Shown here piece by piece: positions 3,561 through 22,272 of a stretch of DNA of 64,000 nt. The stretch is from a virus. Each line of letters opens with the position of its first letter. Position 1 is the first letter of the stretch. Location of the stretch: IMG/VR virus record IMGVR_UViG_3300032053_000041, positions 1 through 64,000 of that record, one strand, 5' to 3'. Made by a program: the position numbers and the translations under genes. Below the pieces are notes generated by a model. That model was not told the origin of the DNA, did not search any database, and was given only the letters and a program-made list of their open reading frames with translations.

Positions 3561-4286
3561 TCAACGCACGCGCGGGCGGACCTCTTTCGCAGCATCTTCG
3601 ATGCTACCGACGATGTCGATGTGCCCCGTCGGGATGGCGTCCGGGCCCCGCGGGTCCCCCTGCCAGGATGTGACCTGCCAGGCGATGCCGGGTCTGGTCG
3701 AGCGCGTGATGGTCTGCCACCCGCCAGGGTAGTCGGTGACCGGATTGGCGTCGGTCACCTGGACGACGTACGCGCCGGTTCGCTCGACCTCGGCGCGGAC
3801 GCGCTCGATGTGCGCTTCGCGCTCGCGGCGCATGCGAGCGATCTGCTCCGCGAAGGTCTCTCGGTCGGCGTTCGCGACGAGCTTACCCGTCCCCCCCGCG
3901 ACCTTCAGCGTTCCCTCGTACCGCACCGAGCCCACGCCGTCGTACGAGACGCGCCAGGCCGTCCTTGGAACGTCGATGTAGCCGCGCACGATCCATTCCG
4001 GGTGTTTGCGCCCAGCCTCTTCCCACGCCTCGTCACGCTCTTCCTCGCTCGCCATCACAGGTTCGTCCATCGCGGCACCGTCGTACCGCAACGCTCGCGT
4101 GTTTTTCAGCGAGACCTTCAGCACAAGCTCTTCGCCGCCATGAGCCTCAACCGCCTCCTCCGCGTAATACTCCGCCAGTTCTGGCTCGGCTGCCAGGTAC
4201 GGATCGCGTAGGCCGTCACGCTCGATCTCGTCGGCAAAGACGGTGGACGTGCCGTGGTACAGCGTGAGTGTGCGCGCGGGGTTCAC
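3561..4286 (-). CDS. ADP-ribosyltransferase-fold protein plus C-terminal domain
   Basis: LYHGTS...IERDGL..PYLA...AEYYA resembles ART/Tpt1-like NAD-binding motifs. Confidence 0.6.
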   Translation of the reverse strand: MNPARTLTLYHGTSTVFADEIERDGLRDPYLAAEPELAEYYAEEAVEAHGGEELVLKVSLKNTRALRYDGAAMDEPVMASEEERDEAWEEAGRKHPEWIVRGYIDVPRTAWRVSYDGVGSVRYEGTLKVAGGTGKLVANADRETFAEQIARMRREREAHIERVRAEVERTGAYVVQVTDANPVTDYPGGWQTITRSTRPGIAWQVTSWQGDPRGPDAIPTGHIDIVGSIEDAAKEVRPRVR

Positions 4287-4606
4287 GACATCCTCGTCGC
4301 GAGTTTAGCAAGCCGCGCCGGGCTCGGAGAGTACGCCCACATGATCAGCGCCAGGTGCCTGCGCGTCGGCACGCCGTCCTGCCAGAGCGGCTCTCCATGC
4401 GCCTTCACCTGCGCCATGTGTCGAGCCACGAAGTTGTCTCGCTTCCGCGCCCAGTGCTCCGACAGCCGATTCGGCTCTCCGCTGGCACGCCGGTACGCCG
4501 TCATAAACCCGCGAGGGCTTCGCGCCACGACCGACACGCCGAGCTTCCTGGCCGCGGACATGTACTGGTCGATGAGCCGGAGGCTCAGGTAGCGCGGGCT
4601 GCTCAC
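4283..4606 (-). CDS. basic hypothetical protein
   Basis: Coupled ORF; GVSVVARSPRGF...RDNFVARH...PTRRHLALIMWAYSP. Confidence 0.65.
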   Translation of the reverse strand: MSSPRYLSLRLIDQYMSAARKLGVSVVARSPRGFMTAYRRASGEPNRLSEHWARKRDNFVARHMAQVKAHGEPLWQDGVPTRRHLALIMWAYSPSPARLAKLATRMS

Positions 4607-5820
4607 AGCGCCTCCCTCCCGTTCTCGACCAGAATCTGCTCGATGTCCTTCCCGCCCGCCGTCGGCGTGTGGCCCGGATCGAAGATCACGATGCGGTCCC
4701 AGTCGTCGGCGTCGCGGGCGATGTGCCAGCCGATATTCAGCAGGTGCACGTCACGGAGGTAGACGCCGTTCGAGGCAAGCATTGAGAGAGACTCACCGAG
4801 CGGCGCGAAGGCGCTGCCGCTGAAGTGTCGATCGAGTCGCGAGATGTACTCCTCGATCGATTCCAGTGACGAGAACGATGGAGAGCCCCACGCGCTCGTG
4901 TCCTCTCCTCGTTTACGTCTGTGCCACGCCTGCGCCGCAAGGCGGTACCTATCGAGCCCCTCGATCGCGCGGGAGAAGTCCCCGTACTGTGCGCTCGGGC
5001 CATACGCCGGAGCATCGACAGGAAGCCCCAGCTTGTCCAACGTGTACTGACTGAAGCGCAGTCCCTTCCGATCGTTCACGAACACCGGTTCGATCCCCTC
5101 CCTCACGATCGCCCAGACCTTCTTCTTCCGTCCACCGTACGGGATGTCCGGCGTGATCCGGTGCAGGCTCTTGATCTCTGGGAAGCCCCCGTCGCCGTAT
5201 CGCTCCTCGTCGAGCAGTCCCTTGATCTTCGACCAGATCGGTCCCTCCGTCGGATCGATCGAGAGCTTCACGACCCACGGCGGCGTGCTCTCGAACACGC
5301 AGCCCCAGTGGCCGCAGCCGAGCATCGTGCCGAGCGGCATACCGATGGCCTTCTCGATCTTGTCGCGCTTCGTGAGCAGCTGCTCGACCCACGCCTTCTT
5401 GCGGACGTTCGCGTTCAACGGTCGCGTAGAAAAGCCGCCGCGAGGTATTCCAACCTGAGCAGCCATCCCTTCCGTCACAGGCCACGCGCCCAGTTTCGTA
5501 GATCCAGATCGCTTGCACTCGTCGAGCGCCGCGAGCACGAGCATCTCTGACAATCCTCGCTTCCGGTACTCAGGCAGGATTCCGAGTGCGGTTACTTCGC
5601 ACGTTTCATACCCCCAGACATCTCTGTCCGAGGCGTCTTTGTCGTAGAGCCATAGCGTCGCGGCGCCGACCATCTTTCCGTCAACGAACAGACCGAGCGC
5701 CTTGCTCGTCGTCTGCAGCAGCAGGCCCTCGCTTTCTACCCAGAGACCTCCTTCTCCATCGCCGAGAAAGCGAGACGCTTCCTCGGCGTCGATCGGTACT
5801 ACTTCAACCGCGGGGATCAC
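4603..5820 (-). CDS. GNAT acetyltransferase - protein kinase-like fusion
   Basis: N-terminal LGILPEYRKRGLSEML (GNAT motif A); C-terminal LGCGHWGCVF, VVKL, DVHLLNI, IFDPG (kinase G-loop, Lys, catalytic loop, DFG-like). Confidence 0.75.
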   Translation of the reverse strand: MIPAVEVVPIDAEEASRFLGDGEGGLWVESEGLLLQTTSKALGLFVDGKMVGAATLWLYDKDASDRDVWGYETCEVTALGILPEYRKRGLSEMLVLAALDECKRSGSTKLGAWPVTEGMAAQVGIPRGGFSTRPLNANVRKKAWVEQLLTKRDKIEKAIGMPLGTMLGCGHWGCVFESTPPWVVKLSIDPTEGPIWSKIKGLLDEERYGDGGFPEIKSLHRITPDIPYGGRKKKVWAIVREGIEPVFVNDRKGLRFSQYTLDKLGLPVDAPAYGPSAQYGDFSRAIEGLDRYRLAAQAWHRRKRGEDTSAWGSPSFSSLESIEEYISRLDRHFSGSAFAPLGESLSMLASNGVYLRDVHLLNIGWHIARDADDWDRIVIFDPGHTPTAGGKDIEQILVENGREAL

Positions 5821-16641: not shown

Positions 16642-17299
16642 CGTCGATCTCGGTTCCCTGAAGGAGCAGATGCTCTCGCTCGACGCGCCGATCTCGCAGG
16701 TGCAGGACTTCCTGCAGAAGAAGCTGAAGCCGCACCGGAAGCAGGTGTCCGTGGTGCGCTTCGCAAGCGGGCGTCTCGAAGAGCTTTCCGAGGCGACGCT
16801 GCAGGTCATCGACGGCACCGCGGAGGATGTGCCTGGGACGGTCGTGGAGGCTCAGGCGGTGGAGCCGGTCGTGGAGAAGAAGGAGAAGCCGGCACCCAGG
16901 AAGGAGGACAAGCCCGCGGTGGCGGCGACGGTGGGGCAGCCGGCGCTCGGGTGCCCGGTACCGGAGTTCGACGAGGTCGAGATCCGGGCGACACGTGTCC
17001 TCAAAGCGTTCCTGACGCCGGAGCAGGTGGAGGACTTCGACCGGAGGCAGCAGTTCGTGGCCGTCGGCGCGGACACAGGCCACAGGTACCTGCTCACGTC
17101 GCGGCAGTCGCGGCACGCCTTCGAGCGGGCGAGCTTCCGATCGCTCTACGACATGGATGAGAGGCAGGCGCTCTGCGTACATGACTGGGAGGTCCCCGCG
17201 GCCGAGGAGCTTCTTGGGCTTTATCTGCATGTGTCCCTGCCGGGACTGGAGGGCTTCGTTCGGTCCATGCCGGACCGAGACGGGGTGCTGCACCGGTGA
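16439..17299 (+). CDS. hypothetical protein
   Basis: AGGAG RBS; strong GC3 codon bias. Confidence 0.75.
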   Translation: MHKPQNFTWYLPSMYGDIKLEKITDKSTRLTLVGLSPTEKEAVKALFARAVKPGAFKKVWTSETALRDVDLGSLKEQMLSLDAPISQVQDFLQKKLKPHRKQVSVVRFASGRLEELSEATLQVIDGTAEDVPGTVVEAQAVEPVVEKKEKPAPRKEDKPAVAATVGQPALGCPVPEFDEVEIRATRVLKAFLTPEQVEDFDRRQQFVAVGADTGHRYLLTSRQSRHAFERASFRSLYDMDERQALCVHDWEVPAAEELLGLYLHVSLPGLEGFVRSMPDRDGVLHR

Positions 17300-17673
17300 G
17301 CGACGAATCCGTCCCGCAGATGTTGCACAATGCCCTCGCGCTGCTCAATCGCGAGTTTCCAGCCGCCAAGCTCGTCGAGGTCCGCTTGGAGTTCCGTAGC
17401 GGTGAGCGTCACGGCGCGACGTACGGCTGCGCACAAAACTGGACCAACGAACCGACCTGGACGCTACAGGTCAATAACGACCGCGAGTCCCATTCTGTGC
17501 TGAGTGAAGCGCTCGCCGTGCTTCGGGTAAAGCTCGCTCGCAAGGCGCAGGTGCCTGGGCTCGCCGATCGCGTCGCGACCATCCTTCGCGAGATCCCGGA
17601 CGAGGGGTTCGAGAGGAATGACGTGCTCATGGCCGCGCAGGTGATGCTGGAGAAGGAGCGCAGCGGACGATGA
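17296..17673 (+). CDS. hypothetical protein
   Basis: GTGA-coupled to the previous gene. Confidence 0.6.
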   Translation: MSDESVPQMLHNALALLNREFPAAKLVEVRLEFRSGERHGATYGCAQNWTNEPTWTLQVNNDRESHSVLSEALAVLRVKLARKAQVPGLADRVATILREIPDEGFERNDVLMAAQVMLEKERSGR

Positions 17674-17747
17674 ACCGAGAGTCGCTGGTCGTCGCTGGTT
17701 GTCTTCTCCTCTGCTGGTTCTTTGGCTTCGCGTGCGGAAAGGCGTAG

Positions 17748-17957
17748 GTGGCTGGAATGAAGCCCGACGCGGAACAGATTACGGAGCCGGTGACTATCAC
17801 GCCGCCCGAGCCACCTTGGGTCGAGCCGTGCATGGCGTGCTCGCGGCCCATGCGATGCGACAAAGGACCGTCTGCGCTCTGGTGCTGGCGTTGCCGTTGT
17901 CGCTCGTGGCTAGGTGTCAGAGTCAGGAGCACACTCAGAGTCAGGAGCACACGATGA
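17748..17957 (+). CDS. small Cys-rich protein ending at the first cassette core
   Basis: CxxC...CxxCxC; its TGA is the TGA of the core at 17955. Confidence 0.5.
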   Translation: MAGMKPDAEQITEPVTITPPEPPWVEPCMACSRPMRCDKGPSALWCWRCRCRSWLGVRVRSTLRVRSTR

Positions 17958-18247
17958 AGCAAGGCACTCAGTCGGATAATTCAGGGGCGAGCTACCTGGA
18001 TACGGAGAACGGCACGGTGCAGAACCTCGTCTACTGGCTCCGCGATCCGCTGGACGAGGAGACGCTGGCGGTGCTGTGCAGAGTAGAGCGCGGCACCCAG
18101 GGATTCAGGCGCGATCGGTTGAACGTGGCGTACCTTGTGAGCCGCGACTGCATCACGGCCGACTGCAACGCCGAGACGCTCGCGATCACGCCTACCGGTA
18201 GGGATGCTCTGGCATATTTCGGTGGAGAGAACAGGGCTCGTAGATGA
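17954..18247 (+). CDS. cassette 1 protein, wHTH-like
   Basis: Starts MKQ at a core and stops at the next core; YLVSRDCI...ITPTGRDAL. Confidence 0.6.
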   Translation: MKQGTQSDNSGASYLDTENGTVQNLVYWLRDPLDEETLAVLCRVERGTQGFRRDRLNVAYLVSRDCITADCNAETLAITPTGRDALAYFGGENRARR

Positions 18248-18287
18248 AGCACGGTTGCACGGTAGATCCAACGGAACGGAGCATGTG

Positions 18288-18704
18288 ATGGCAGATCCCA
18301 AAGAGAACGCGCCGGTCGATTCTGAAGCGGTGGACCCGGGAACCCTGACGCTCTACCGGGCGCAGAGCGAGCAGCCGTGGACGGTGCCATATGGAAAGAA
18401 CAAGTGGTGGGTGGTGAGCGAAGAGGGCCGTCTGAAGCACTGCCTGTCGCACGCTCAGAAGACGCTCGGGAAGATCGCTGCCATCGTCGAGAGCTTGGAC
18501 CACGCGGACCGAGGCTGGCTCACCGACGATGAGTGCGATCAGGTGGGCGACATGGCTGCGGACCTCGTAACGGTCGCGCTACAGGTGGGCACGACGGTTT
18601 CGCGCAGCGTCGCTCACGCCCTCGTCCGTCGCGTCGTCGCTAAGAACGGCAAGCTGTTCGATCTGACCGGAGGAACCTATGGCCGTGCGCTCATCTGCAA
18701 GTGA
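18288..18704 (+). CDS. cassette 2 protein, MazG-like all-helical NTP pyrophosphohydrolase fold (tentative)
   Basis: HCLSHAQKTLGKIAAIVESLDH...GDMAADLVTVAL; preceded by 14-codon leader MKHGCTVDPTERSM*. Confidence 0.5.
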   Translation: MADPKENAPVDSEAVDPGTLTLYRAQSEQPWTVPYGKNKWWVVSEEGRLKHCLSHAQKTLGKIAAIVESLDHADRGWLTDDECDQVGDMAADLVTVALQVGTTVSRSVAHALVRRVVAKNGKLFDLTGGTYGRALICK

Positions 18705-18791
18705 ACCGAAGGTGAGCGGGACACGTTCAGCGGACTCCCGCTCGGCAATGAAGCACGGATGCACGGCAGACCACGCGGAACGGAGCATGTG

Positions 18792-19163
18792 ATGGCAGAT
18801 CCAAACGAGATGGGTACGGAGTCGGTGGTTTCCGGAGCCGCGGGGCCGGTCGATTCTGACGAGCCAAAGTCGCTGTGGACCGTTGTTGGGCTGTACGAAC
18901 GGGGCAAGTACAACCGAGACACGTTCGTTTGCTACCTGAGCGGAATCACCGCGGAAGAAGCAAAGCGTTTTGCCGAAGAGGGCAACGCGGCACGTGGTGA
19001 CAAGATAGAAGTGCTAGCGTGCGTCGCAGGGGGCGGTGTCGCTCACGTGTTTCAGCGTGCGGCCAGCCGATGCACATGCACGCCGTACAACCCGGAGCAT
19101 GATTGTCCTGAGCACGGTCTTCAGGTGAGCGGGACTGAGAACGGATCGGAGGCTCGCAGATGA
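18792..19163 (+). CDS. cassette 3 protein
   Basis: Same leader type as cassette 2 (MKHGCTADHAERSM*); CTC...DCPEH; stops at a core. Confidence 0.6.
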   Translation: MADPNEMGTESVVSGAAGPVDSDEPKSLWTVVGLYERGKYNRDTFVCYLSGITAEEAKRFAEEGNAARGDKIEVLACVAGGGVAHVFQRAASRCTCTPYNPEHDCPEHGLQVSGTENGSEARR

Positions 19164-19215
19164 AGCATCCCCGAATCAGAAACCGTGCTCAGCGGAGCAC
19201 GAGAGAGGCAATCCG

Positions 19216-19452
19216 GTGACCTCGGAACGATCGGCGCGCGCGCTCAAGTGGCTCGACGATAGGTACGAGACTCGTTCCGCAGAGGAGCGACAAGCGATAC
19301 TTCGGTTGGAGCCTGCTATCTTGGCGATGTTGGTTGGGCATCATGCGCTAGGGGGCTTCGCCAGTGATGAAGCTCCAGCCATGGTCAACATAGTTCGTAT
19401 CTGGTTGGAAACGAAGGTGAGCGCATCCGAAAAGACCCCGGTGCAACCGTGA
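19216..19452 (+). CDS. cassette 4 protein
   Basis: Follows a 19-codon leader; ends EKTPVQP* at a core. Confidence 0.55.
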   Translation: MTSERSARALKWLDDRYETRSAEERQAILRLEPAILAMLVGHHALGGFASDEAPAMVNIVRIWLETKVSASEKTPVQP

Positions 19453-19652
19453 AGCAATCGAAGAAACTGATTGAGGTACACTCAGATCCGCGAACCTGTC
19501 TCTGCGGATGGGTCAGACCGGTGCGAGCCGGGTTCGCAAAAGACGAGATGGGAAACGAACCGATCGAGGTTCCAGAAAAACGGTTCTACTTTCTCTATGA
19601 CTGCCCGCAGTGCGGCGCGCGGTGGAACATGCTTCTGGAACGGGTGGATTAG
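19449..19652 (+). CDS. cassette 5 zinc-ribbon protein (copy A)
   Basis: CLCG...YDCPQCG; near-identical to 20552..20755. Confidence 0.7.
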   Translation: MKQSKKLIEVHSDPRTCLCGWVRPVRAGFAKDEMGNEPIEVPEKRFYFLYDCPQCGARWNMLLERVD

Positions 19653-19710
19653 GGAGCAACCGTGAAGCAACGTGTGTCGGAAACTACCCCAACAAGAAAG
19701 AGGCGATTCG

Positions 19711-20037
19711 TTGACCAAGAATCCGTTGTCGAAGCTCTACGGTGAGTGCCTCGTTGATCGAGCCGGCTCCCTTGAGGCTCGGGGGAAGGATCTTTTGATG
19801 AGTGAAGTTCGTGAGCGGGCGTTCGCGGAGTTCCTACGCCGCCATAACGATACGCTCGTAGCACTGGTGGCGACGCTCCCGAAGTGCGCTCGGGGCTGTC
19901 GCCGTCTGGCTACCACGACGGACGGTGACGGGACGTACCACTGCGATCCTCATCGACCGCCGCGTGAACTTACGGTCAGCGTGGACCTGCCGTGGGCGAA
20001 GCTAGTTCGGGAAGAAAAGATTCCGGTGCAACCGTGA
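19711..20037 (+). CDS. cassette 6 protein
   Basis: TTG start after AAAGAGG; CxxxC...CxxH; ends EKIPVQP* at a core. Confidence 0.55.
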   Translation: MTKNPLSKLYGECLVDRAGSLEARGKDLLMSEVRERAFAEFLRRHNDTLVALVATLPKCARGCRRLATTTDGDGTYHCDPHRPPRELTVSVDLPWAKLVREEKIPVQP

Positions 20038-20156
20038 AGCATCTTGCAGACTGGATTCTTGACCAAGCCTCGCTGCTCGTGCCGTGCCTGTTCGCCGGGG
20101 CGTTCGTCGCTCTGATAGGTGGCGAGGTGTACGACCGAATCAGGGAGCAACCGTGA
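20034..20156 (+). CDS. cassette 7, 40-aa membrane peptide
   Basis: MKHLADWILDQASLLVPCLFAGAFVALIGGEVYDRIREQP*, running exactly core-to-core. Confidence 0.55.
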   Translation: MKHLADWILDQASLLVPCLFAGAFVALIGGEVYDRIREQP

Positions 20157-20208
20157 AGCAGCAGGTACCGGCTGTCCGCAACGACCCCGACACGAAGGAG
20201 ACAATCCG

Positions 20209-20376
20209 ATGAACCAGAAAACGAAGAAGTGCCGCGAAGAGCACCCGATCCTCTGCATCGACCCGGCGGGCGAGATTCCTCTTCGGTGCGGACTCCCGAA
20301 GGGCCACGGGGGGCTGCACGAGGACGAGCGAGAAACGGATGGCGCGAAGCCAGAGAAGACGGAGCCCGCGCCGTGA
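20209..20376 (+). CDS. cassette 8 protein, C-x-L-x-x-GH-x-G-x-H
   Basis: AAGGAG RBS in a 19-codon leader homologous to that of cassette 4; stops at a core. Confidence 0.55.
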   Translation: MNQKTKKCREEHPILCIDPAGEIPLRCGLPKGHGGLHEDERETDGAKPEKTEPAP

Positions 20377-20555
20377 AGCATCCTCGCCCCACCATCTCGG
20401 AACCCGCAGTTCTGAACTACGTGGTCTTTCACGCCGCCGATTGCCGCCGACTGCTCGACAAGTGGTGCCCGTGCGGCTGCGGAGCCGAGCAGCGAGCGCG
20501 AGACGCTCTCTATCGAGCGGTGGACGGATGCTCAGACACTAGGAGACAACCATGA
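20373..20555 (+). CDS. cassette 9 Cys-rich protein
   Basis: MKH start; HxxDC...CPCGCG; core-to-core. Confidence 0.55.
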   Translation: MKHPRPTISEPAVLNYVVFHAADCRRLLDKWCPCGCGAEQRARDALYRAVDGCSDTRRQP

Positions 20556-20755
20556 AGCAACCGAAGATACTGATTGAGGTACACTCAGATCCGCGAACCT
20601 GTCTCTGCGGATGGGTCCGACCGGTGCGAGCCGGGTTCGCAAAAGACGAGATGGGAAACGAACCGATCGAGGTTCCAGAGACACGGTTCTATTTTCTCTA
20701 TGACTGCCCGCAGTGCGGCGCTCGGTGGAACATGCTTCTGGAACGGGTGGATTAG
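20552..20755 (+). CDS. cassette 10 zinc-ribbon protein (copy B of cassette 5)
   Basis: Differs from copy A at 3 of 67 aa. Confidence 0.7.
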   Translation: MKQPKILIEVHSDPRTCLCGWVRPVRAGFAKDEMGNEPIEVPETRFYFLYDCPQCGARWNMLLERVD

Positions 20756-20764
20756 GCGGCACCC

Positions 20765-20974
20765 GTGAAGCAGCATGACCAACCGAAGCCGCTCGTGCAC
20801 TGGTGCGTGTTCAACGACGGGGAGCCGGTGTGCGGGGCGAAGATGCCGGAGCCGCCGACGAGAAAGCCGTTCTCGTGGCCCGACCACTACCCGCGGGTGG
20901 CGACGTCTCAGAAATATGTGACGTGCGAAGCCTGCAAGGAGCACTGCGCCGGTCCGAACAAGGCGAACCGGTGA
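20765..20974 (+). CDS. cassette 11 zinc-finger protein
   Basis: MKQ start at the last core; VH...PVCG...VTCEAC. Confidence 0.6.
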   Translation: MKQHDQPKPLVHWCVFNDGEPVCGAKMPEPPTRKPFSWPDHYPRVATSQKYVTCEACKEHCAGPNKANR

Positions 20975-20992
20975 GCAAGAAGGAAGAGGAAC

Positions 20993-21196
20993 ATGAAGTT
21001 CAGTGAAGTGATCGCGGCGCTGGAGGACGGGAAGAAGGTCAGGCAGTCCGGCATCGAGGGAGACTACTACCAGTTGGTCTCGCCGGGTCAGGGACTGAAT
21101 CGCCAGTTGGTGTACGTGTATCAAGACGGCAGCTGGGAGAACGCGGAACTCAGATTCAGCGGTCACATGCGCAACGACTGGTCGGTGGTCGAGTGA
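20993..21196 (+). CDS. small protein resembling DUF2829/Tad2-type phage proteins (tentative)
   Basis: MKFSEVIAALEDGKKVRQ...NDWSVVE matches the remembered family ends MxFxEAL..LK.GKKV.R ... DW.IV. Confidence 0.45.
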   Translation: MKFSEVIAALEDGKKVRQSGIEGDYYQLVSPGQGLNRQLVYVYQDGSWENAELRFSGHMRNDWSVVE

Positions 21197-21471: not shown

Positions 21472-22272
21472 ATGAGCAGCACCGGTCGCGGCAGCGAGCG
21501 CGAGGAGAACGACGTCTACCTGACGCGCTACCCGCTCGCGCTCGCGATCTGCGAGAAGCTGAAGGCCGACGGCGTCATCGTCGCGCCGAGCGTGATGATG
21601 GAGCCGAGCGCGGGGGGAGGCTCCTTCGTCAGTGCGATGGCCGAGACATGGGCCCCGCGAACGCTGTACTGCAACGACCTCAACAGCGGTCTGATCTTGC
21701 CGGAGCACGAGGACCGTGCCCGGTTCTGCATCGAGCGCGCCCACCTGGGCCGTCACGAGAGCCACGGCAAGCTGATCTCGCTGGAGGGCGACTTCCTGCA
21801 GATCGAGCAGCGGAATGTGCCTGGGATCCAGGCCATCGTGGGCAATCCGCCATTCACCTTCGCGGAGCAGCATGTCCGTCATGCGATCTCGCTGCTTGCC
21901 CCTGGTGGAGCGCTCGCCTTCCTCCTTCCTGTGAACTTCCTCTCGGGCATCAAGCGTGTCGGCGGGCTCTATCGGGAGCACCCGCCCGAGTACGTGTACG
22001 TGATCGACAAGCGCCCGCAGTTCGTGGACGGCTACCGGATCAACAAGCACGGCAAGCGCGTGAAGAAGGGGACCGACTCGAACGAGTACGGCGTCTTCGT
22101 GTGGAGGAAAGAGCGCCCCGAATTTGAACCAGTGATCCGGTGGCTTCAGTGGTCGAAGTACTTGCAGAGGTTCAAGAACAAAGTCGAGAGGGTCGAGATC
22201 CAGGTAGGACAGAACGTGGACACGGACGACGAGGACGTGGCAGGCTCCGCGACCGCAGGAGAGACAGAATGA
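21472..22272 (+). CDS. DNA N6-adenine methyltransferase
   Basis: SAM motif MEPSAGGGSF precedes catalytic GNPPF. Confidence 0.88.
   Translation: MSSTGRGSEREENDVYLTRYPLALAICEKLKADGVIVAPSVMMEPSAGGGSFVSAMAETWAPRTLYCNDLNSGLILPEHEDRARFCIERAHLGRHESHGKLISLEGDFLQIEQRNVPGIQAIVGNPPFTFAEQHVRHAISLLAPGGALAFLLPVNFLSGIKRVGGLYREHPPEYVYVIDKRPQFVDGYRINKHGKRVKKGTDSNEYGVFVWRKERPEFEPVIRWLQWSKYLQRFKNKVERVEIQVGQNVDTDDEDVAGSATAGETE

Follow-up and report, generated by a model that had tools for sequence, protein, structure and literature searches.

A 64,000-nucleotide stretch of phage DNA, here called the window, carries an array of small genes joined at copies of the octamer RTGAAGCA. The window covers the first 64 kb of the 76,228-bp IMG/VR contig IMGVR_UViG_3300032053_000041 (guanine-plus-cytosine (GC) content ~64%, CheckV completeness 56%), which derives from an uncultured, GC-rich, large sediment phage of about 136-140 kb when complete. 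The octamer forms the core of a longer, conserved nucleotide module that recurs in many phages, some of them nearly unrelated, and the genes between the modules are gained, lost and reordered between close relatives. The reading we favour, with somewhat better than even confidence, is that the module is a reused translational-coupling element that doubles as portable homology for ordinary recombination, the array being a fast-turnover accessory island. The initial annotation, made from the letters of the window, had proposed an integron-like system in which a crossover site itself enforces coupling. The array it described was recovered, whereas the site-specific mechanism found no support.

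Anatomy of the junction module

The heptamer TGAAGCA occurs 21 times in the window compared with 5.27 expected (standard deviation 2.5), a number reached in none of 100 shuffled sequences. Twelve copies lie on the plus strand between 17955 and 20766, and 11 of them stand at the starts of consecutive small open reading frames (ORFs), their octamers spanning 17954-20772; the twelfth, at 18433 (CTGAAGCA), lies within a gene and marks no junction. The excess over expectation and the clustering at gene starts identify the RTGAAGCA array as real, far beyond chance. Elsewhere the octamer is scattered only, as had been stated of the heptamer: 11 of the 13 plus-strand copies in the 76-kb genome fall inside one 2.8-kb stretch. 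All 11 junction positions given at the outset were found again on the plus strand. Each heptamer is preceded by A or G and opens a frame beginning M-K-Q/H, and in eight cores (17954, 18244, 19160, 19449, 20034, 20153, 20373 and 20552) the TGA is also the stop codon of the upstream ORF, the same count as before. The five C-terminal tails noticed on unrelated proteins (EKTPVQP*, EKIPVQP*, RIREQP*, ENRARR* and ENGSEARR*) are likewise present and are encoded by the sequence on the core's left side. A degenerate core, ATGAAGCC, at 17757 heads an additional cassette, and a half core, ATGAAGTT, at 20993 is the start of the last gene of the variable region.

Two properties initially ascribed to the array have to be qualified. 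The octamer had been called invariant, which is true of TGAAGC, constant in every junction examined including those of distant phages, but not of the first and last positions, where ~10% of the junctions in relatives carry variant letters (GTGAAGCC, GTGAAGCG, GTGAAGCT, CTGAAGCA). Some of the cassette DNA had also been described as AT-richer than its surroundings; the direction is right, but the difference is mild, with a GC content of 0.59-0.62 in the array versus 0.63-0.65 in the flanks and, at third codon positions, of 0.63-0.80 in the cassettes versus 0.79-0.90.

An alignment of 95 distinct junctions from the source genome and related arrays revealed that conservation extends beyond the octamer, from about -19 to +45 around the purine of RTG. 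The order of the elements is AAAAGAC, GGWGCAACC, RTGAAGCA, seven free letters, ACGGCWGTCC and, further on, AGAGAGG, which resembles a Shine-Dalgarno (SD) sequence. GGWG lies 5 nt before the start codon, a spacing typical of SD sequences, with CAACC as the spacer between them. The repeated element is therefore a nucleotide-level junction module of about 45-100 nt and not a 7-bp crossover site. At ~30 of the 95 junctions (2.8 expected) GGTG(A/G)GC is found 33-37 nt upstream. The upstream motif GGTGAGCG (or CTAG(C/T)TC), seen for example at 18712-18719, 19125-19132 and 19417-19424, is present at about one third of the junctions; located ~33-37 nt upstream, it resembles a decayed core and has no frame preference.

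The relation of the cores to the reading frames was counted for 97 junctions, with upstream ORFs of at least 30 codons. Such an ORF stops on the core TGA in 77 of them, compared with 38-41 in the other two frames. Long ORFs are opened by 61 of the cores and short ones, termed relay ORFs, by the remaining 36. Among the latter, 17 are exactly 19 codons long, and in 24 the stop overlaps the first codon of the following long ORF as NTGA; in the 19-codon unit this overlap is preceded by a second SD sequence. In the window, relay ORFs open at 18244, 18748, 19160 and 20153, and one with a shifted frame opens at 19662. Conservation within relay ORFs is even across the three codon positions (0.71/0.65/0.66), and the letter following the core is unconstrained (A20/C18/G33/T23), both of which indicate a constraint on the nucleotides rather than on the peptide.

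The stop/start overlaps at cores and relay ends, together with SD sequences inside the upstream coding sequence, are features of coupled operons and fit a chaining of translation from gene to gene. In this respect the proposal of a site that enforces coupling agrees with the overlap counts; its second half, a site-specific crossover, is not supported. Between 14 and 23.5 kb no sigma-70-like promoter was found (1.3 expected), and terminator-like sites were not in excess (6, with 6.0 expected). A divergent gene boundary lies near 14.1-14.4 kb and the array begins 3.5 kb downstream, a placement resembling that of an early operon. Stable or attC-like folding was absent in 10 junctions, whose z-scores relative to shuffled controls ranged from -1.2 to +1.2. 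RNA structure at the junctions was rejected, the local hairpins of some relay modules being out of register between variants, as was a palindrome or an 11-7-11 site at the core. An N-terminal targeting peptide of the T4 capsid-targeting type was rejected in view of the random choice of Gln or His at codon 3 and of relay ORFs that lack codon-position bias. Translational bypass by matching take-off and landing codons was dismissed, CCG preceding both overlaps in only 4-5 of the 17 relay units, and so was a reading resembling a selenocysteine insertion sequence (SECIS), since the frame past the UGA closes within a few codons. The spacings do not match the consensus of promoters of the extracytoplasmic function (ECF) or sigma-54 type.

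Turnover and spread of the arrays

A comparison of cassette order in relatives had been set beforehand as a test, and it revealed gain, loss and reordering. Two relatives whose left flanks are 97% (L123) and 99.6% (L283) identical to that of the source phage lack 17674-21192 and contain instead two unrelated genes in 546 bp; the breaks lie where the conserved genes on either side have their ATGA and GTGA overlaps. In a third relative, L284 (95% identical), an exact ATGAAGCA stands in place of the degenerate ATGAAGCC of the window; sequence identity extends to the last letter of this core, behind which a different leader and cassette follow. In L285, which is 98-99% identical in the common pieces, a homologue of the gene behind core 11 precedes cassette 1 and lacks the core, its product starting with MSDQPKP compared with MKQHDQPKP in the window. 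Next come cassette 1 and core 2 with its relay ORF, then a different gene beginning 6 bases past the coupled ATG of the relay and, further downstream, additional ATG-type cassettes.

Parts of the array were also present in 24 sediment metagenome runs, and the assembled contigs of four runs were aligned to it. Contigs end at cores, and loose ends that start exactly past the cores at 17763, 19167 and 19456 carry other leaders. In one contig 18244 is joined to 20035 over the common 7-mer, with the removal of five cassettes. Other joints do not run from core to core: 19457 is joined to 20002, 19721 to 20013 and 19277 to 20147, and another leads from 20216 back to 20032. One of these variants leaves an empty unit of 13 codons, consisting of a core and the left-hand module only, which suggests that the relay mini-ORFs are stumps; they are probably the remnants of deleted cassettes. 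The breakpoints thus comprise cores or positions a few bases off, plain ATGA/GTGA overlaps, the start codon past a relay ORF and gene interiors. The expectation that they lie at TGAAGCA is accordingly correct for many, which fall at the heptamer or within a few bases of it, but not for those at RTGA overlaps, behind relay ORFs or inside genes. A modular array of small genes that differs in content and order between close relatives is supported by these comparisons. Three observations had been named in advance as contrary to the cassette proposal, namely a fixed gene order, breakpoints away from the cores and a heptamer as common at other gene junctions; none of them describes these arrays.

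The distribution of the module was determined by searching IMG/VR with the 17-mer GGWGCAACCGTGAAGCA, and the whole records of three array carriers were examined. The 17-mer was found at 28 loci, and ~20 contigs from at least 15 metagenomes contain arrays of 3-14 RTGAAGCA junctions with small genes between them. In four genomes the junctions are clustered in arrays and rare elsewhere. Two of the carriers, G001 (140 kb) and G005 (136 kb, with terminal repeats), have ~36 of 115 proteins in common with the source phage at 35-70% identity. In the third, G002 (96 kb), the number of common proteins drops to 5 of 115; even so it has 14 junctions, with relay modules that match those of the source phage at ~80-90% nucleotide identity. 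Nucleotide (BLAST) matches between arrays consist mostly of modules, from about -37 to +50/+78 of the cores, with unrelated flanking genes. One leader module, which reaches from the core to an ATG ~100 nt downstream, stands before the same gene in G001 and L143 and before an unrelated gene in L142; the amino acids and even the frame of its mini-ORF vary, and the stop still adjoins the ATG. Cassette families are almost never shared between arrays.

No array was found in 185,579 prokaryotic genomes, in which the 17-mer has 86 matches, none of them array-forming; these are chance matches. The region had no match among 50,697 deposited phage genomes, and a literature search for the RTGAAGCA motif or for an integron-like phage array of this type yielded nothing specific.

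Two records deserve separate mention. In G002 (IMGVR_UViG_3300038468_000170) the first 100 bases recur at 95795 in an imperfect overlap of ~225 bp, which probably reflects a circular or terminally redundant record whose two arrays form a single one of 14 or more junctions. In L037 (IMGVR_UViG_3300037137_003653), small genes and three junction modules occupy a 0.9-kb island at ~4170-5105 whose GC content is 57-63%. The surrounding contig is that of an unrelated phage of 40% GC and was obtained from a sample that also yielded a relative of the source phage. No before/after pair was found for this island among the relatives of the AT-rich phage, all of which diverge right after a conserved 459-aa gene. 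The island is the result of either horizontal transfer or an assembly chimera.

Coupling, regulation or site-specific exchange

In the favoured model the module would hand ribosomes from gene to gene and would thereby secure the translation of whichever promoterless gene follows it. Copies of the same module within a genome and in co-infecting phages would provide portable short homology, at which general homologous recombination, microhomology recombination or replication slippage may delete, duplicate, replace and reorder genes. Relay mini-ORF stumps would be kept for in-frame coupling. Both the coupling and the choice among these recombination routes are inferred from the overlaps, the SD sequences and the breakpoints. 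Several observations weigh against this model. The constancy of TGAAGC exceeds the obvious need of an SD-plus-start signal, and neither the fixed 19-codon relay length nor the motif ~35 nt upstream is accounted for. The same applies to the ordered blocks of A- and G-type cores described below with a recombinase gene at their border: a small Xer-like gene lies inside the arrays of three contigs at the A-to-G transition, and a large one is located near the arrays of G001 and G005. In addition, no phage recombination gene of the RecT, ERF or YqaJ type was recognised, which is weakly informative as most of the proteins match no family.

Of the alternatives the one that survives best, though we consider it unlikely, is that the module is a cis-regulatory site for a trans-acting factor and gene shuffling a by-product. 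The site could be a phage promoter from which leaderless mRNAs start at the RTG purine, or an operator at which a translational repressor or an endoribonuclease acts on early genes. The conserved stretch is indeed long, asymmetric, unstructured and constrained at the nucleotide level (about -36 to +45), much like a footprint; a purine is always at position 0, the second motif keeps a fixed distance of ~-35, and the motif is confined to accessory arrays, like the start-associated sequences (SAS) discussed below. Against this reading, an AT-rich -10-like element is absent at -12 to -7, and neither a sigma-factor gene (Sigma70_r2) nor one for a single-subunit RNA polymerase was found, the latter being a weak blank since control genomes gave no match either. 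Moreover, in 77 of 97 cases an upstream ORF passes through the putative promoter before terminating on the core, an arrangement in better agreement with coupling.

A dedicated site-specific cassette system, in which a phage tyrosine recombinase exchanges strands within the asymmetric TGAAGCA overlap and thereby inserts and excises cassettes, as in integrons and pdif modules, is less probable still. The window itself lacks a recombinase, as had been stated, and the recommended search of the remaining genome was successful. At 64932-69230 (+), outside the window and 44 kb from the array, lies the gene of a 1432-aa protein that combines a SAM-like N-terminal domain (residues 63-108) with a tyrosine-recombinase catalytic domain (462-533); its ~900 C-terminal residues match no Pfam family. 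Homologues in G001 (1279 aa) and G005 (1251 aa), 55-61% identical over the first 548 aa, are encoded 1-4 kb from the arrays. The gene of a different, 314-320-aa Xer-like tyrosine recombinase is situated mid-array and on the same strand in G002, G003 and L132. It has its own ATGAAGCA core and leader upstream, lies exactly at the transition from a block of ATG junctions to a block of GTG junctions, and forms two lineages with 93% protein identity. A tyrosine recombinase is encoded in each of the three complete genomes that bear arrays. With TIGR02249 the small enzyme scored 19.9 bits and the large one 35.3 bits, the cut-off being 265; both are generic Xer-like recombinases and not integron integrases. 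The enzyme of a site-specific system would thus be either the small one in the array or the one of 1250-1430 aa near other arrays, that is, itself a cassette at the ATG/GTG border or fused to a 900-aa extension elsewhere. An undescribed exchange of cassettes by such an enzyme would take place at an asymmetric, arm-less junction that also provides stop, ribosome-binding site and start, such that captured genes would be expressed immediately and arrays could move between unrelated phages; the odds on this are similarly low.

The constancy, asymmetry and single orientation of the 6-7 bp core are what such a system predicts, and several homology breaks fall 0-10 nt from a core, with one deletion joint sharing exactly the 7-mer. 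The position of the recombinase genes within the arrays of G002, G003 and L132 and near those of G001 and G005 and the GC-rich three-cassette island in the unrelated AT-rich contig L037 also agree with it. A simple tyrosine-recombinase site, on the other hand, requires inverted arms around the overlap. At the core an average of 2.4 of 11 positions are complementary, none of the 95 junctions reaches 8, and with spacers of 5-10 bp arm complementarity is equal to or below that of shuffled pairings. The right-hand leader CGGWTGCACGG is the reverse complement of a common left arm, GGTGCAACCG, but the two never occur at the same junction. The core had been judged unlike attC (GTTRRRY) or dif, and this proved correct, there being no attC-like fold, no GTTRRRY and no inverted arms. 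The letter before the heptamer, A or G, predicts the class of the leader behind it (Fisher p about 1e-7), and in seven arrays ATG-type junctions come first and GTG-type junctions after, in ordered blocks. Free or frequent crossover at the 7-mer would erase both the linkage and the blocks, which are expected if exchange needs homology longer than the 7-mer. Arguing further against site-specific exchange are the breakpoints at plain RTGA overlaps, past relay ORFs and inside genes, recombinases that differ between array-bearing phages and score far under the integron-integrase cut-offs, and, in the source genome, the 44 kb between recombinase and array. The arrangement of attI/Pc with intI at the head of the array was not found, the recombinase lying far off here and mid-array in G002, G003 and L132.

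Least probable is common descent by tandem duplication of one small gene and its start region, with bodies since diverged or replaced around a slow-evolving octamer, for which one duplicated cassette (94%, 231 nt), duplicated relay modules and an 18-bp tandem duplication at core 1 can be cited, but which is at odds with cassette proteins that are mutually unrelated, with a module identity of 80-90% between phages that have core proteins of 35-70% identity or no detectable relation, with the same gene found with a core (gene 11) and without one (L285), and with the different order in near-identical strains.

The variable region and related systems

The variable region (Table 1) comprises about 14 small, mostly orphan genes in one direction and one operon, with overlapping stops and starts. 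The cassette proteins are mutually unrelated and belong to no Pfam family; a single one matches a PHROG, which has no assigned function, so that neither Pfam nor PHROGs provides a function for any of them. The description of one cassette product as MazG-like found no support in sequence searches of Pfam, PHROGs or PDB. No tRNAs were found in the window. The ATGA overlap of the conserved 125-aa gene at 17296-17673 is the left breakpoint of the region. The last gene, which is missing from L123 and L283, matches Pfam PF11195 (Thoeris anti-defence 2-like, Tad2-like) with an E-value of 3.1e-5 and 24.9 bits, borderline to the cut-off of 25, and hints that the variable region may be a counter-defence island. 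The module at core 4 is 82% identical to one in G001 and is present in G002 too.

Table 1 Features of the variable region, its surroundings and the small recombinase genes of other arrays (positions refer to the window unless a contig is named)
Feature	Position	Strand	Remarks
25-aa hydrophobic peptide gene	17670..17747	+	ATGA overlap between its start and the end of the conserved 125-aa gene
Variable (hyperplastic) region with array	17674..21192	+	Unrelated 546-bp two-gene stretch in L123 and L283
Cassette 0, 66 aa (MKPDAEQITEPVT...)	17757..17957	+	Start is the degenerate core ATGAAGCC
Exact 18-bp tandem duplication (TCAGAGTCAGGAGCACAC x2)	17917..17952	+	Doubles the SD just upstream of core 1
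Core 1 (ATGAAGCA, 17954-17961) and cassette 1, 97 aa	17954..18247	+	Stop is the TGA of core 2
Core 2 and 14-codon relay ORF (MKHGCTVDPTERSM*)	18244..18288	+	Stop overlaps start of next gene
Cassette 2 gene, 138 aa	18288..18704	+	phrog_27761, no assigned function
Core 3 and 14-codon relay ORF, second copy	18748..18792	+	Module 85% identical
Cassette 3 gene, 123 aa	18792..19163	+	Stop is the TGA of core 4
Core 4 and 19-codon relay ORF	19160..19219	+	GTGA overlap at end
Cassette 4 gene, 78 aa, tail EKTPVQP*	19216..19452	+	Stop is the TGA of core 5
Core 5 and 67-aa CxC...CxxC zinc-ribbon-like gene, copy 1	19449..19652	+	
Core 6 and 27-codon relay ORF	19662..19745	+	Related to the 19-codon type, with a shifted frame
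Cassette 6 gene, 108 aa, TTG start, tail EKIPVQP*	19711..20037	+	Stop is the TGA of core 7
Core 7 and 40-aa membrane-like peptide	20034..20156	+	Stop is the TGA of core 8
Core 8 and 19-codon relay ORF	20153..20212	+	ATGA overlap at end
Cassette 8 gene, 55 aa	20209..20376	+	Stop is the TGA of core 9
Core 9 and 60-aa gene	20373..20555	+	Homologue in L047 has different neighbours and a GTGAAGCC junction downstream
Core 10 and zinc-ribbon-like gene, copy 2	20552..20755	+	231-nt repeat, 94% identical to 19444-19674
Core 11 and 69-aa gene	20765..20974	+	Core-less homologue ahead of cassette 1 in L285
67-aa Tad2-like gene	20993..21196	+	Begins with ATGAAGTT; last gene of variable region; borderline Pfam match
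DNA methyltransferase gene	21472..22272	+	phrog_799, E 9.5e-35; just downstream of variable region, kept in relatives
Small Xer-like gene, L141	5475..6419	+	
Small Xer-like gene, L132	5205..6146		
Small Xer-like gene, G002	95.6 kb to 0.8 kb		Gene spans the contig ends

Among known systems the functionally nearest are the promoter-early stem-loops (PeSLs) of the hyperplastic regions of T4-type phages (Arbiol et al. 2010, PMC2839356; Comeau et al. 2014, PMC4122927). There too, short conserved regulatory modules that carry an expression signal stand before small orphan genes, their copies serve as exchange points, and close relatives differ by insertion, deletion and replacement; mini-circles arising when neighbouring copies recombine have been demonstrated. 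PeSLs, however, are intergenic and consist of a sigma-70 promoter and a terminator stem-loop, whereas the junctions described here have neither a promoter-like nor a stem-loop element and no intergenic space, but a stop/start overlap with a constant TGAAGC and optional relay mini-ORFs.

Nearest in form are the start-associated sequences (SAS/ESAS) of Cluster K mycobacteriophages (Pope et al. 2011, PMC3203893), asymmetric, SD-containing repeats in one orientation at the starts of 10-20 non-structural genes of varied families. They are kept across subclusters, the upstream stop sometimes lies inside the repeat, and a role in translation is suspected. The RTGAAGCA module is likewise an asymmetric, SD-containing repeat of one orientation at the starts of unrelated non-structural genes and is rare elsewhere. 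SAS differ in being a 13-mer, GGGATAGGAGCCC, 3-8 bp upstream of the start, which excludes the start codon and the first codons, compared with the junction consensus GGWGCAACC-RTGAAGCA; they are scattered over half the genome and unchained, and cassette turnover at SAS has not been described. With integrons the array has in common the one-directional series of promoterless, unrelated small genes that differs between relatives, and a recombinase in or near some arrays. It lacks the IntI-type integrase, the folded attC palindrome, the GTTRRRY core and the attI/Pc arrangement, and its junctions lie in coding sequence, where they supply both a stop and a start codon. The asymmetric 7-bp sequence at module boundaries recalls loxP, FRT, dif and pdif, from which the junctions differ by the missing binding arms. 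The array therefore fails the defining sequence and structural features of PeSLs, SAS and integrons.

Small early accessory genes hold much of the host-takeover and counter-defence repertoire of phages, and to our knowledge their rapid gain and loss is understood for only a few model phages. Here, a compact, sequence-defined junction recurs in many uncultured phages, including nearly unrelated ones, and is accompanied by gene turnover at the strain level. It makes two questions testable: whether a stop/start module alone secures the expression of the gene behind it, and whether general recombination or travelling recombinases move the genes. In metagenomic phage contigs the motif is a practical marker for accessory-gene islands.

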